Below are positions 32,869 to 40,849 of a DNA stretch of 41,394 bases, in pieces. The notes under the pieces were generated by a model that was given only the letters and a program-made list of their open reading frames with translations, searched no databases and was not told the origin of the DNA. A program made the translations under genes and the position numbers. The stretch comes from Thermoproteota archaeon (GTDB taxonomy: Archaea > Korarchaeota > Korarchaeia > Korarchaeales > Korarchaeaceae), in contig JAOZFG010000005.1 of assembly GCA_027491435.1 (NCBI GenBank), positions 1 through 41,394 on the forward strand. The letters are read 5' to 3'. The first letter of the stretch is position 1. Each line of letters opens with the position of its first letter.

Positions 32869-32924
32869 GATATCCCCGGATAGGGACTTCTAAGGGTTAT
32901 AAGGTATGACCGTACATATCAGGG

Positions 32925-35126
32925 ATGAAAACGTTCTACCACCTGGAGAGCAGGGACGGGCTCATAGAGATCTGGCTTTCCGGAGGAAAGCTCATCAGAA
33001 GGAAATTCAGGCCCTACTTCTTGGTCCATAGGGATAAGGAGGGGCTAGTCAGCGGCTATCTGGATAAGGAATACGTTAAGGTTAAGGTCAGGGGCATAGA
33101 TAGGGACATGGTGAAGTTCTACTTTCTGGACGATAAGAGCAGGAAGAGGGCAGCCAAGGGATTGGAGGAAGTGTTCAACCTCGAACTTAACCCGTGGGAG
33201 CAGTTCCTCCTGGACACCGGCCTAGAACCGTTCTCTGAGGTTGACGAGGGGTTGCATGTGCTGGGGGAATCTTCCCTTGACTCCCTCACCAAGTTTTACT
33301 TCTCAGGGGTTATCTACAGCGAGGACGGATTCCCAGTAGAGGGAAAGAGCCCTGTGATTGCAATAGCCTACTCCGTTGACGATGGGCCTGTCGAGGTAAT
33401 TTACGCCAGCGACATGGACGACGGTCAGGTTCTGAAGGAGTTCGTGGAGTTAGTCAAGAGGGTTGACCCAGACGTGCTCATAGGATATGGCCACGACGCA
33501 GACGAGCTGCAGCATATGTCTGCTAGGGCTAGAGTTAACGGTCTGAGGCTCTCATTGGGCAGGGAGGGAGAAGAGCCAGTTCAGACCGGCAGGTTCTTCA
33601 GGGGGATGATCCTTGTGGAGCAGAAGATTAGGGGAAGGGCAAACATCGACATGTTCCCCATAGCTTGGAGGGACTTCCCCCAGCTTCCTACAAAGACCTG
33701 GTACGAGCTGGCTGACGAAATAGGCGTTTCTAGGCCTAAAGCTCTGATGAAGTTCAGGATCCCCGACCTCTGGAGGAGGGATAAGGATCAGTTGATAGGC
33801 TATCTGAAGGAGAAGCTACAAACTATAAAAGAAATATCGAGCAAGCTCCTTCCCAATCAGGTGGAGCTATCGAGGCTCGTGCTTAGGCCTATTCATTACC
33901 TGGTTAGGTCCCCCGTGGGGGAGATAGTGGAATCCTACGTGTTCAGAGAGGCGCACTCTAAAGGTTGGGCTATCCCGGGGAAGAGCCCAGGAGGAGGAGG
34001 TTACGCGGGAGGTTATGTCTGGCTGAGGGCCCCCGGAATTTATGAGGGAGTTGGTTACTTGGACTTCGCCAGCATGTATCCCTCTATAATGGCTTCCCAC
34101 AACATAAGCGTGGAGACCGTCAATCCGCCAGAGGGCCTGTGCAGGGTCAAATCCCTATCAATTGAGGGGACGTCTGCTCTCGTGTGCGAAGATTACAGGG
34201 GGATACTTAGCGAGATAATAGACAGGCTCCTTAGAATGAGATCTGAGATAAAGGGGAAGATGAAGGCCCTCCCCGAGGGCTCGCCAGAGAGGAAGAGGCT
34301 CGACGCCATCCAGAGGGCTGTCAAGGTGATAACCAACGCTACCTATGGTTACCTCGGGTGGGAAGGGGCTTGCTTCAAGAACCCGGATGCGGCTAGGCTC
34401 GTGGCGGCCCTCGGCAGGTTCTACATAAAGAAGGTTAAGGAGATGGCTGAAAGCAGGGGGCTTAAGGCCATCTACATAGACACCGATGGGATACAGCTCA
34501 CAGGGGGGACCACTGAAGTTTATCAGGAGCTGGTGGACTATGTGAACGAAAGCCTGCCTTTAAGGATAGAGCTTGAGTACGTGGCTGAGAGGGCAATTTA
34601 CCTGACTAAGAAGAAGTACGCCCACCTGGTTAATGGGAGGCTCGTAGCCAAGGGGTTCGAGTTCGTGAGGAGAGACTACCCGAACATAGTGAAGGAGGCT
34701 CAGAGGAAGGTCGTAGAGATGCTCCTCATGGGGGAAGGCATCGAGAAAATTAAGAAGGTAGTGAGGAAGTACGTAAAGAGAATAGAGGAACTTAAGGTTG
34801 AGAAGGAGGATCTAATAATCATAGAAACCATAGGAAAAGAGGTAGAACGCTTTGAGAGGAGGACCAAAGGTTACTACGTAGCCAAGTGGCTTAAGGAGAG
34901 AAAGGGCATAGAGGTCCACAGGGGGCAGGTGCTGAGGATACTCATAGTGAGGGGAGGGGGGAGCGTAAATGAGAGGGCCAGGCCTGCTGAGTTCTTCTCG
35001 GTGGAAGACGTTGATAAGGAATATTACATTAGACTCCTTGAGCAAGTAATAGAGAGGACGCTAGAAGCTGCTAAGAACGTGATAAGGGAGGAGAGGAGAA
35101 CTGGGCTTGAGCAGTGGCTGGCTTAA
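32925..35126 (+). CDS. polB: Family B DNA polymerase, polymerase motifs intact, 3'-5' exonuclease motifs degenerate
   Basis: DFASMYPS, QRAVKVITNATYGY, YIDTDG, KKKYA, KGFEFVRRD; C-terminal PIP-like TGLEQWL. Confidence 0.93.
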   Translation: MKTFYHLESRDGLIEIWLSGGKLIRRKFRPYFLVHRDKEGLVSGYLDKEYVKVKVRGIDRDMVKFYFLDDKSRKRAAKGLEEVFNLELNPWEQFLLDTGLEPFSEVDEGLHVLGESSLDSLTKFYFSGVIYSEDGFPVEGKSPVIAIAYSVDDGPVEVIYASDMDDGQVLKEFVELVKRVDPDVLIGYGHDADELQHMSARARVNGLRLSLGREGEEPVQTGRFFRGMILVEQKIRGRANIDMFPIAWRDFPQLPTKTWYELADEIGVSRPKALMKFRIPDLWRRDKDQLIGYLKEKLQTIKEISSKLLPNQVELSRLVLRPIHYLVRSPVGEIVESYVFREAHSKGWAIPGKSPGGGGYAGGYVWLRAPGIYEGVGYLDFASMYPSIMASHNISVETVNPPEGLCRVKSLSIEGTSALVCEDYRGILSEIIDRLLRMRSEIKGKMKALPEGSPERKRLDAIQRAVKVITNATYGYLGWEGACFKNPDAARLVAALGRFYIKKVKEMAESRGLKAIYIDTDGIQLTGGTTEVYQELVDYVNESLPLRIELEYVAERAIYLTKKKYAHLVNGRLVAKGFEFVRRDYPNIVKEAQRKVVEMLLMGEGIEKIKKVVRKYVKRIEELKVEKEDLIIIETIGKEVERFERRTKGYYVAKWLKERKGIEVHRGQVLRILIVRGGGSVNERARPAEFFSVEDVDKEYYIRLLEQVIERTLEAAKNVIREERRTGLEQWLA

Positions 35127-38543: not shown

Positions 38544-39625
38544 AGCTCCAAGCTGTACCTCAGTATTGCAGCTATTCCCCCTATGGACTCGAGCTTCTCC
38601 CCGGGCTCGCTCCTCGAATCCACTATGTGAAATTCAGACCTGGTTTTCTCAGCCATCTCAAGTATGGAGAGGATCCTATCCCTGGTCTCCTGATTGAAAA
38701 GCAAGGAACTGCAGACAAGCACCTTCTCAGCGGCTCCCATGTTGACCGCCTGCTCGACCTCGTTAAGCCCGTAGGTGACCAGCTTGGAACCCTTAGCTAA
38801 CAGCTCGAAGACCTCATCTACCAGCTTCATGTGTTTAGTCAGGTCCAGGTCCTTGACAGCCTTGTCAACCTCTCCCCTTTTGACCAGCTCAACAACGCCG
38901 CTCATGGTGGCGTTTGAGGTTGTGGTCACCCTAATGCTCTTGGTGAGTTCTGAGTGCCTCTCCTGGACGTACTTGTAGAACTTGTCTTTCATGAAGCCAG
39001 GCCCCCCCACTATGACCACTTGAGCCCCAGACCTTCCCTTCAGGTCCTCTAGCGTCTTTGCTAGGTCGGAGAAGTACCTCCTCTCCTCACCCTCCCTGTC
39101 ACTCCTCTCCGCCCTCTTTGATGAGAGGCCTGACCTTATGTACATGACCTCGGAGAGGTTGTAATTGTCCAGCTCAGCGACGGTTGCGCCCTCGTCGTCC
39201 ATGGAGACCAGTATCGCCTTGGCCTTTGTTGAGGACTCCACAGCCCTCCTTATTATCTCAAGGTGGGACCTCCTCCAGTTCTTCTTCCAGATCTTGACGG
39301 TGGAGCCTACGTCCACGTTAAGGGTGTGGTGTTGTCCCTGTATGCCGAACTTCTCAGGCCCTATCCTAACCACCCCGGTCAACCTCAGCCTAGAGGAGTA
39401 CTCGTCCAGCTTGACCTTCTCGACTTCGACTGTCAGAGTCATGGGCAGCCTTTCTCCGCTGTCAGCTCTGCCCCCTTCCCTCTTCACCCTCCTGGTGGTC
39501 CTCATGGTTACCCAGTCTCCAGGCTCGATTATAGAGAGGAGCCAGTAGAGGTCCTCCAGCCTCTCAACTTTTAGGGCTATGAACCCCTTCTTGACGTCTT
39601 CCTCAATTACCCTCGTGGGGTTCAC
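38540..39625 (-). CDS. pelA: Pelota/Dom34 ribosome-rescue factor
   Basis: EDLYWL, RLRLTG, GQHHTL, GGPGFMK, YGLNEV, GGIAAILRY. Confidence 0.95.
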   Translation of the reverse strand: MNPTRVIEEDVKKGFIALKVERLEDLYWLLSIIEPGDWVTMRTTRRVKREGGRADSGERLPMTLTVEVEKVKLDEYSSRLRLTGVVRIGPEKFGIQGQHHTLNVDVGSTVKIWKKNWRRSHLEIIRRAVESSTKAKAILVSMDDEGATVAELDNYNLSEVMYIRSGLSSKRAERSDREGEERRYFSDLAKTLEDLKGRSGAQVVIVGGPGFMKDKFYKYVQERHSELTKSIRVTTTSNATMSGVVELVKRGEVDKAVKDLDLTKHMKLVDEVFELLAKGSKLVTYGLNEVEQAVNMGAAEKVLVCSSLLFNQETRDRILSILEMAEKTRSEFHIVDSRSEPGEKLESIGGIAAILRYSLEL

Positions 39626-40803
39626 CCCACAGTCAGGACTGTAAGGCCTACAGGCTTCTTGACCACCTCGTGTTCCTTATTCGCTATTATCACCTTGACG
39701 CCTATCTCGTAAGCCTTCTCAACTATCCTCTGGGTGACTATCTTATCATAGACTATGTACCTCACCTGACCCTTCAGCTTGTCCAACACGTCGTAAAGTT
39801 CCCTAGTAGGCACCTCCTTAACGAGCTTTAGGTTCTCGTCCAACAGAAGGACTTTATCAGTGCCCGCCACTTTGAGGTAGAGTTCCCTCATCTGCTCTGG
39901 TATCCTATCCAAGTTCCTGGGGACCTTCACCTCCGGAAGGACCTGAATCCTCTCCTCCTGGTGCTTCTTGGGCGAATAGGAGATTCCCATGGATTTCCTA
40001 ACTTCATCGGCTGGTACGGCTGAGGATAGGGCCTTCCTTATCTCCTTGGCAGTGAGCTCCTCCACTACCTTGCCCTCTGGGGCCCTAGCAACGTAGTCTA
40101 TGTCGGTCTGCTCCAACAAGGTTCTAAGCACCAGCTCTCCTCCCCTATCGCCATCCACGAAGGCCGTTGCGTCTTTCATGGAAATTAGCTTGACCAACGT
40201 CTTCGGAACTTTTTCCACGGCCCCTCCCATGGCTATGACGTTGTTGTAACCGTACTTGAGGAGATTTAAGACGTCAGCCCTTCCTTCAACAACTATTATC
40301 TCGTCAGCCTCCTCAACGCCGCTACCAGCTGGAAGTCCCTCCTCTCCATAGAGAACTAGGTTCATCTTGGCGCTCTCCCTCTGGACGAACTCTAGCAACT
40401 TCCTGTAGGTGTCCTCCTTCTCTGCAGACCACTTCCTTAGAATCTCAACGGCCCTTCTAGCTATAGCGTTCCTCCTCTCGTCCCTATCGTCAAGTATCCT
40501 TATCAGCCTGAAGGTGGCCGTGTAAGGACCTACCCTGTCTACAGTTTCCATAGCTGCCGCCAGCAAAGCGGTCCTCACCTTGTCAAGCCCTGAGTAGAGC
40601 TCTACAACCCCTCTAGACCTTTCGGACTCCCTCTTTAGCCTTATGTTAATCCTTCCAATCTTTCCAGTGCGCTGCAGCTCTTTGAGCTCAAGTTCAGGTC
40701 CTAGTAGACCCTCAAGCTGGCCGAAAATAGCTCCTATCACGTCGCTAGGTTCCACAACTCCGTTAACGATTACCTCGAATCTAGCTATATACTTGTGGCT
40801 CAT
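39622..40803 (-). CDS. dnaG: Archaeal DnaG (TOPRIM; exosome-associated)
   Basis: DVIGAIFGQ.EGLLG, VVEGRADV, FVDGDRGG, ARAP; start ATG 40803 or 40827. Confidence 0.95.
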   Translation of the reverse strand: MSHKYIARFEVIVNGVVEPSDVIGAIFGQLEGLLGPELELKELQRTGKIGRINIRLKRESERSRGVVELYSGLDKVRTALLAAAMETVDRVGPYTATFRLIRILDDRDERRNAIARRAVEILRKWSAEKEDTYRKLLEFVQRESAKMNLVLYGEEGLPAGSGVEEADEIIVVEGRADVLNLLKYGYNNVIAMGGAVEKVPKTLVKLISMKDATAFVDGDRGGELVLRTLLEQTDIDYVARAPEGKVVEELTAKEIRKALSSAVPADEVRKSMGISYSPKKHQEERIQVLPEVKVPRNLDRIPEQMRELYLKVAGTDKVLLLDENLKLVKEVPTRELYDVLDKLKGQVRYIVYDKIVTQRIVEKAYEIGVKVIIANKEHEVVKKPVGLTVLTVG

Positions 40804-40849
40804 CCCATCTTTTCTAGAGTAATCCATACGTTAATCATCCTCCCGGTTG

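Follow-up and report, generated by a model that had tools for sequence, protein, structure and literature searches.

To our knowledge, reviews of the archaeal family B DNA polymerases single out PolB2 as the only exonuclease-less group among them and usually treat PolB3 as a proofreading enzyme. Most PolB2 proteins have a substituted first Asp in polymerase motif C and lack the ExoIII motif (PMC7544198, PMC11791011), and their operon partners are iRadA and PPB2 (PMC11791011). The exonuclease-less Sulfolobus Dpo2 is an extender of mismatched and lesion-paired ends (PMC8764526). Sulfolobus can do without PolB3, whose loss results in a sensitivity to some kinds of DNA damage that overlaps with PolB2 (PMC7785828, PMC8100216), and the B3 enzyme of Thermococcus has been tied to repair and not to replication (PMC7544198). 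Korarchaeum encodes both PolB3 and PolB1 (Makarova 2014). Here we describe the polB3 gene of a Korarchaeum-genus archaeon (GenBank assembly GCA_027491435.1), which lies on contig JAOZFG010000005.1; the window analysed comprises its positions 1 to 41,394. The open reading frame spans exactly 32925..35126 on the forward strand, starts with ATG, ends with TAA and encodes 733 amino acids (aa), and the N-terminus of the protein agrees with those of its orthologues in a MAFFT alignment. Its product is the sole PolB3-group family B DNA polymerase of this organism.

The distinguishing feature of this protein is its exonuclease site, where Ser, Val and Lys take the place of three of the four metal-binding carboxylates and the fourth, an Asp, has become Glu. 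Residues were mapped onto the Thermococcus gorgonarius (Tgo) enzyme with two MAFFT alignments and one hhalign profile-profile alignment, the latter comparing 13 korarchaeal with 13 exonuclease-intact B3 sequences (probability 100, E 4e-130, 731 columns). All three concordantly equate S127 with D141, V129 with E143, G189 with N210, E194 with D215, Y293 with Y311 and K297 with D315. The placement of ExoI on FSGVIY is further supported by predicted secondary structure, because FYFSGVI lies on a strand (E123-130) of the AlphaFold2 model, where ExoI is expected. A different placement on SSLDS, which came from a pairwise HMMER alignment to 5h12 and is shifted by a few residues, was rejected in favor of the position on which both MAFFT alignments, the hhalign alignment and the strand prediction agree; the pairwise alignment likewise yields no D-x-E pair at ExoI. 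The first-pass annotation of this DNA had described all three exonuclease motifs as erased. The exonuclease and polymerase motif strings that it quoted are all present in the translation at the places it gave, and no carboxylate is found at the positions of D141, E143 and D315, either at the level of sequence profiles or of secondary structure. On the other hand, "erased" goes too far for ExoII, which shows a conservative Asp-to-Glu exchange, and for ExoIII, which keeps its Tyr. The DEDDy exonuclease residues, which are typical of B3 without defining the clade, are thus incomplete here, and 90 of 108 other B3-like representatives carry the DEDD set.

In DEDD nucleases both ExoI carboxylates bind both metals. 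Engineered Thermococcales polymerases with the D141A/E143A exchanges are exonuclease-minus and do not proofread, and single changes at these positions abolish exonuclease activity. We infer that proofreading has been lost in the korarchaeal protein, which would polymerise with normal base selection and be unable to edit its errors. The place once taken by metal is probably occupied by K297, and the cationic replacement of D315 by Lys or Arg may substitute for the missing metal; this replacement recurs in the korarchaeal family, in many other forms from TACK archaea (Thaumarchaeota, Aigarchaeota, Crenarchaeota and Korarchaeota), and in one Thermoplasmatota form.

The polymerase site presents the opposite picture, as the first-pass annotation had recognized: nothing is missing from motifs A, B and C, and D380, Y385, K467, D519 and D521 are canonical. 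An AlphaFold2 model built from a 22-sequence alignment (predicted local distance difference test (pLDDT) 89.1, predicted template-modelling (TM) score 0.85) matches the 9N and KOD PolB structures over the full length in Foldseek (TM 0.84-0.86, ~774 aligned columns; 4k8x, 4k8z, 9oaw). The N-terminal, exonuclease, palm, fingers and thumb elements are all present, and the complete fold of the exonuclease domain is kept because the model superposes along its entire length. The Pfam family B polymerase domain (PF00136) is detected at residues 333-714 (3.6e-48), and the exonuclease domain (PF03104) gives a weak and partial match of 29.2 bits to residues 165-250, that is, only the second half of the domain. 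No NCBIfam equivalog scored above its cut-off for this protein.

The Thermococcales PolBs (Tgo, KOD, 9N, Pfu, Deep Vent) are thus alike in architecture and in motifs A, B and C, at 28-30% identity (E 2e-86), and differ in that the korarchaeal protein is ~40 aa shorter, has its exonuclease carboxylates replaced, reads YIDTDG at motif C, lacks six residues of the N-terminal region, has Glu at the V93 position and carries a longer hairpin in the exonuclease domain. The N-terminal domain had earlier been called short; the deletion does lie there and the protein has 733 versus 773 aa, so the description is right in direction, the shortening being only mild. The deletion and the Glu fall on what we take to be the uracil pocket of Tgo. 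The V93 position, named in the PDB title of 2vwk for its V93Q variant, varies among the orthologues, and the equivalents of P36 and Y37 are retained. The read-ahead uracil-sensing pocket, and with it stalling at uracil, has probably been lost, and synthesis may continue past uracil in the template. At the C-terminus, GLEQWL aligns with the GLGAWL end of Tgo in both MAFFT and hhalign, such that the G-L-x-x-W-L tail, which presumably serves in Tgo as a PCNA-interacting peptide (PIP), occupies the same place in both; an intact PIP-like tail had also been noted in the first reading. The tail lacks the canonical leading Gln, is kept as GLE-x-(W/F)-(L/F) in most orthologues, and is probably flexible, with pLDDT <50 over residues 719-733 and a short helix at 729-732 in the model. 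A tethering of the enzyme to PCNA through this tail is plausible. DP2 of the same genome ends in GGDLLEFL, also a PIP-like tail.

The same configuration is found throughout the family to which this protein belongs. A word-indexed search recovered 27 relatives at 41-83% identity, followed by a drop to Tgo at 30%, and when 1.84 billion representatives were scanned exhaustively with HMMER, five family representatives came out at 463-1028 bits, followed by a gap to 287 bits. Across the 31 sequences of this family (hereafter KOR-type), Korarchaeum cryptofilum OPF8 included, the positions of D141, E143 and D315 never hold a carboxylate. The D141 position is Ser in 26, Thr in three, Tyr in one and Lys in one; the E143 position is always Val, Leu, Ile, Met or Ala; and the D315 position is Lys in 28 and Arg, Thr and Tyr in one each. 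At the D215 position 27 members have Glu, three Asp and one Phe, and the ExoIII Tyr is retained in 29/31. On the polymerase side, the equivalents of D404 and Y409 are present in 31/31, that of K487 is Lys in 30 and Arg in one, and the DTD of motif C occurs in all 30 sequences that reach it, a single truncated sequence stopping short. The K. cryptofilum OPF8 protein (ACB07943.1 / B1L664, 726 aa) comes from a different species of the same genus; the 90% cluster that contains it (representative P0013) shares 55% identity with the polB3 product and shows Ser, Met, Glu and Lys at the four positions, i.e. the same pattern. Related genomes share the polB3 locus. A literature search found no published biochemistry of K. 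cryptofilum PolB3 and no comment on its exonuclease site. Judging from these alignments, the loss of the site is old and fixed across the whole korarchaeal lineage.

The inactivated domain shows no signs of erosion. Its mean pairwise identity among 26 orthologues is 0.658 versus 0.633 for the polymerase domain, whereas the corresponding values for exonuclease-intact crenarchaeal B3s (n=26) are 0.574 and 0.618. It contains family-specific invariant motifs, namely GYG-x-DADE, RFFRG (on the hairpin mentioned above, which is 4 residues longer than that of Tgo) and AWRDFPQLP, and invariant acidic residues (D166, D191, E232, D242, D250 and E261, with D193 and E194 nearly invariant). By this measure of sequence conservation, the dead exonuclease domain (residues ~121-330) is under selection as strong as that on the polymerase domain and is not decaying.

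The remaining replicative and repair polymerases of this organism were inventoried by genome-wide Pfam and NCBIfam profile searches (1.64 Mb, 43 contigs, 99.46% complete). Only two PolB genes are present, polB3 and a polB1 with intact exonuclease motifs, together with both subunits of PolD (DP1 and DP2) and a single PCNA; neither PolY nor PolB2 was found by these searches. The PolB1 carries a mini-intein of ~156 aa within motif C (YGD / intein / TDS; Pfam PF14890), and most of the korarchaeal PolB1 orthologues listed have 826-838 aa and no intein. PCNA, a PriL-like protein and the large subunit of PolD adjoin one another on a separate contig (C10:3415-6690). The first-pass annotation had termed the polB3 product a paralogue, which does not hold: it is the only B3 of the genome, and its K. 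cryptofilum orthologue is the gene counted as PolB3 in Makarova 2014. In a survey of 40 Korarchaeia genomes, this one included, a B3-type match with an intact frame occurs in 38, the two misses being 63% and 66% complete; PolD occurs in 39/40, and PolY in a single genome as a 77-aa fragment. True PolB2 (motif C LVDS or VVDS, without ExoIII) is found as a third PolB in the genera here labelled g2, g5 and g6, and not in the genus under consideration. Going by this gene content, the polB3 product stands alone among the cell's polymerases in having no editing site, and a dedicated translesion polymerase is missing.

Loss of the exonuclease residues in B3 also extends beyond this family. We scanned GTDB species genomes with an alignment of exonuclease-degenerate B3 proteins: of 80 named loci returned, 76 had frames long enough to align, and the DEDD set is present in 50/76 and missing from 26/76, two of these only through gaps. 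The premise of the first reading that B3 enzymes keep proofreading is thereby wrong, as 24 of the 76 named B3-like loci lack the set outright and two more are gapped there. All loci from Desulfurococcales, Sulfolobales, Thermoproteales and Thermofilaceae are DEDD, and the degenerate ones come from Bathyarchaeia (mostly S-I-D-N), Geothermarchaeota, several non-ammonia-oxidising Nitrososphaeria and one Methanomethylicia; one further degenerate B3-like representative bears the name Culexarchaeum. Within Korarchaeia, the B3 proteins of genera g4 and g5 are only 31-36% identical to the polB3 product, have motif C YGDTDS and are exonuclease-degenerate with residues such as Y,V,D,N or Y,I,H,C. Together, these other TACK proteins (Bathyarchaeia, Geothermarchaeota, Nitrososphaeria, Culexarchaeum, g4 and g5) resemble the KOR-type in belonging to the B3 group, in their intact polymerase motifs and in their PolD-bearing genomes; they differ in sequence (31-36% identity), in motif C (YGDTDS), in their replacements (e.g. 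S-I-D-N or D-I-H-R) and in forming a separate clade. PolD DP2 was found in 16/20 genomes with exonuclease-degenerate and 0/27 with exonuclease-intact TACK PolB3, counting the genomes behind 47 loci and leaving out bacterial-labelled, partial and non-TACK loci; this co-occurrence reflects a few deep lineages and not independent events, and incompleteness of metagenome-assembled genomes (MAGs) affects the four misses. Isolated exonuclease-degenerate B3-like proteins are also seen outside TACK, in Thermoplasmatota and a 'Methanobacteriota' MAG, and some in MAGs labelled Acidobacteriota or 'bacterium HR11', where misbinning or transfer may be the cause.

The placement of the KOR-type within B3, in line with the "PolB3-like" of the first-pass annotation, is supported both by structure-database scores and by trees. 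The best solved relatives are the Thermococcales and Pyrobaculum PolBs at 270-294 bits (Deep Vent 5h12, 2.1e-86; KOD, 9N, Tgo and Pfu, ~1e-80; Pyrobaculum calidifontis 5mdn, 8e-80), with Sulfolobus PolB1 (1s5j) at 115 bits (2.8e-32). In a FastTree phylogeny of 166 sequences the KOR-type forms a clade (support 100) within B3 (97), with B1 and B2 together outside, and a quick IQ-TREE search under LG+C20 PMSF with 70 sequences unites it with other B3s at 96. B2 groups with B1 in both free trees (94 and 97). In both, the KOR-type falls outside the clade that joins the exonuclease-intact crenarchaeal B3s with the other exonuclease-degenerate TACK B3s. Its stem branch is long (0.97), and long-branch effects are therefore likely. 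Approximately unbiased (AU) tests used LG+G4, a model more prone to long-branch attraction, and covered 45 of the 70 rows, with groups named after the tree was seen: they reject the union of the KOR-type with g4/g5 (p 0.0005) and with all exonuclease-degenerate TACK forms (p 0.0007), and do not reject its union with all TACK B3s (p 0.069) or with B2 as one clade (p 0.113, log-likelihood difference 23.8).

Based on these observations, we propose a division of labor in which replication would be carried out by PolD and PolB1, and the polB3 product, as the sole polymerase without an editing site, is therefore most likely a non-proofreading repair, gap-filling or extender polymerase, a reading to which we assign a probability of about 0.6. 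It would perform short-patch repair and gap filling and would extend mismatched or lesion-paired primer ends that proofreading enzymes would degrade, while being held on PCNA via its GLEQWL tail. In this it would resemble eukaryotic Pol zeta and Sulfolobus Dpo2. The latter is the proposed functional analogue, likewise an active family B polymerase without detectable exonuclease (PMC8764526), although the decayed or missing exonuclease domain, the usual lack of the first Asp in motif C, the iRadA-PPB2 operon (PMC11791011) and the damage induction of PolB2 are not shared by the korarchaeal protein. Several points weigh against the proposal. Insertion opposite lesions comes poorly to a high-fidelity active site of the B-family kind, and the unusually strong conservation of the exonuclease domain makes a residual or different catalytic function conceivable, all the more so with the acidic cluster D191, D193 and E194 surviving at ExoII. 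Sulfolobus Dpo3 reportedly keeps exonuclease activity despite incomplete conservation of its motifs (Bauer 2012); the two Sulfolobales B3 loci aligned here, however, carry the full DEDD set. Further, Dpo2 itself merely extends (PMC8764526), and the conserved convergent dnaG neighbour could indicate a primer-related role instead.

The main rival, as ranked in our analysis, is that the enzyme is a Pol-alpha-like accessory of replication that extends primase-made primers or works on the lagging strand before a hand-off to PolD or PolB1, and has no part in repair. Eukaryotic Pol alpha, too, belongs to family B and has lost its exonuclease (PMC12680538), some B3 enzymes are reported as participants in replication (PMC7544198), and the association of exonuclease loss with PolD would suit such a division at the fork, with the caveat given above that it stems from few deep lineages. 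Pol alpha, a primer extender, and Pol zeta (Rev3), a translesion extender, also keep the fold of the exonuclease domain with inactivated catalytic residues; both differ in that they belong to a Delta-like clade, are built from several subunits, carry a C-terminal metal-binding domain and score only 84-92 bits to the polB3 product. The convergent arrangement of polB3 and dnaG, conserved in Korarchaeia and reported for Crenarchaeota, cuts both ways, since convergent genes are transcribed separately (Makarova 2014). B3 is moreover dispensable in Sulfolobus, and no primase-binding feature was identified in the polB3 product. On balance we regard this role as the less probable one. A broader formulation, which we put forward tentatively, is that the loss of PolB3 proofreading is a general and ancient trait of PolD-replicating TACK archaea, encompassing Korarchaeia, Bathyarchaeia, Geothermarchaeota, deep Nitrososphaeria and Culexarchaeia. 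With editing supplied by PolD and PolB1, B3 would then become a Pol-zeta-like or a Pol-alpha-like extender. The strong conservation of the korarchaeal exonuclease domain, with acidic and aromatic motifs of its own, suggests that a new non-proofreading function, such as the binding of a partner or of a DNA structure, may have arisen in it.

Three other explanations appear improbable, to different degrees. The exonuclease could still be active, and the enzyme still proofread, by means of non-canonical residues such as E194, D191, D193 and the other conserved acidic positions; the conservation of the domain, the retained ExoIII Tyr and the activity reported for Dpo3 speak for this. However, both metal-binding ExoI carboxylates have given way to Ser and Val, the D315 position is cationic in 29/31 members, and a weak exonuclease activity once reported for the motif-less Dpo2 was not reproduced with protein from the native host (PMC8764526), so that we hold continued editing to be unlikely. 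Slightly more doubtful still is an identity as a deep-branching PolB2-type mutasome polymerase with an intact DxD motif, instead of a PolB3. TACK archaea do have PolB2s with intact DxD and a fuller exonuclease domain that branch near B3 (PMC11791011), and the AU test does not separate the KOR-type from B2. With long branches on both sides this failure to reject is weak evidence, and the free trees place B2 with B1. On the PolB2-type models NF004416 and NF004418 the polB3 product reaches only 89.9 and 82.8 bits, where 13 PolB2-like proteins reach 325-470; it has kept both the helix and the Tyr of ExoIII, and its motif C has not lost the first Asp. Neither iRadA nor PPB2 lies beside polB3 (PPB2 was not profile-searched), the Rad51/RadA-family genes being located on contigs C16, C10 and C43 and not on the contig of polB3 (C32), and genera g2 and g6 carry the KOR-type gene in addition to a separate true PolB2. 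On profile scores, trees, motif C and neighbours combined, we judged a PolB2 identity unlikely and set it aside. Least credible is that the protein serves as a non-catalytic scaffold or that the gene is decaying: degenerate B-family homologues of a scaffold type do exist, e.g. the C-terminal half of Pol epsilon (PMC4104785), but the polymerase catalytic residues are kept in sequences down to 40% identity (with one Lys-to-Arg exchange in motif B), the reading frame is intact in 38/40 genomes of the class and conservation is high throughout.

The locus itself is unremarkable in composition. As the first-pass annotation had it, polB3 is embedded among housekeeping genes: its neighbours are ThiI and, between 35135 and 39505 and then at 39622-40827, ribosomal protein S26e, ProRS, a TtuA-like protein, an unknown protein, a Pelota-like protein and DnaG, with no mobile-element genes seen among them. 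An origin from a mobile element was dropped in view of the even guanine-cytosine content across the window, these neighbours and the same gene order in relatives. The convergent order of polB3 with S26e, ProRS, the TtuA-like, unknown and Pelota-like genes and dnaG recurs in three other genomes of Korarchaeia, two of them of genus g4, whose B3 at the same spot is only 31-34% identical. This shared locus argues either for descent from a single ancestral gene, with very rapid evolution in the KOR-type, or for an in-situ replacement in g4/g5. The convergence of polB3 with dnaG has been described in Crenarchaeota (Makarova 2014, section 5). In most Korarchaeia genomes polB3 and polB1 are 16-20 kb apart on one contig; here they lie on contigs C32 and C5, at 6.3 kb and 16.3 kb from the contig ends, and these two contigs may abut. 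Upstream of polB3, a TATA-box-like hexamer suggests a promoter for a leaderless or short-leader transcript. Coordinates of these features are collected in the table.

Features of the polB3 locus and of the second PolB gene (window coordinates unless a contig is given; residue numbers are those of the polB3 product, with Tgo residues as reference)
Feature	Coordinates	Strand	Basis
TTATAA, TATA-box-like hexamer ~25 nt 5' of the polB3 ATG	32897..32902	+	read from sequence
polB3, KOR-type exonuclease-degenerate family B DNA polymerase, 733 aa	32925..35126	+	open reading frame, Pfam, PDB, Foldseek
N-terminal stretch without Tgo K87-V92 (six residues), Glu at V93 position	33150..33209	+	hhalign
ExoI remnant FYFSGVIY, residues 124-131; S127 for D141, V129 for E143	33294..33317	+	alignments, translation
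ExoII remnant GYGHDADE, residues 187-194; G189 for N210, E194 for D215; D191 = conserved D212	33483..33506	+	alignments, translation
ExoIII remnant YLKEK, residues 293-297; Y293 (Y311) retained, K297 for D315	33801..33815	+	alignments, translation
Polymerase motif A DFASMYPS, residues 380-387 (D380, steric-gate Y385)	34062..34085	+	alignment; invariant in family
Polymerase motif B KVITNATYGY, residues 467-476 (K467, N471, Y474)	34323..34352	+	alignment
Polymerase motif C YIDTDG, residues 517-522 (D519, D521)	34473..34490	+	alignment; invariant in family
C-terminal PIP-like motif GLEQWL, residues 727-732	35103..35120	+	aligns with Tgo ...GLGAWL
dnaG (archaeal DnaG primase), convergent with polB3	39622..40827	-	NF003108 405 bits, cut-off 300
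polB1, 981 aa from ATG	C5:247347-250367	-	exonuclease motifs VDIEV, YNGDNFDF, YCLQDA intact

A full-text literature search, its scope excluding supplements, figures and subscription papers, found no paper on the loss of the exonuclease site in korarchaeal or other TACK PolB3s. The accessible text of Makarova 2014 makes no mention of such a loss, the accessible main text of Kazlauskas 2020 never names Korarchaeota, and the accessible parts of Tahirov 2009 and Rogozin 2008 name them merely in passing. Both the gene family and exonuclease-dead B-family polymerases are already known, and the korarchaeal enzyme is a variation on these themes and not a new kind of system. What the analysis adds is that a whole class, the reference genome of K. 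cryptofilum included, has a B3 whose editing site is dead and fixed in that state, and that similar losses mark other PolD-bearing TACK lineages, whereas Crenarchaeota, which are without PolD, keep the site. The enzyme is thus a candidate for the 'missing' lesion-tolerance polymerase of archaea that have neither PolY nor PolB2, a natural thermostable exonuclease-minus member of family B, and a counterpart among archaea to the way in which the exonuclease-dead eukaryotic Pol alpha and Pol zeta arose.

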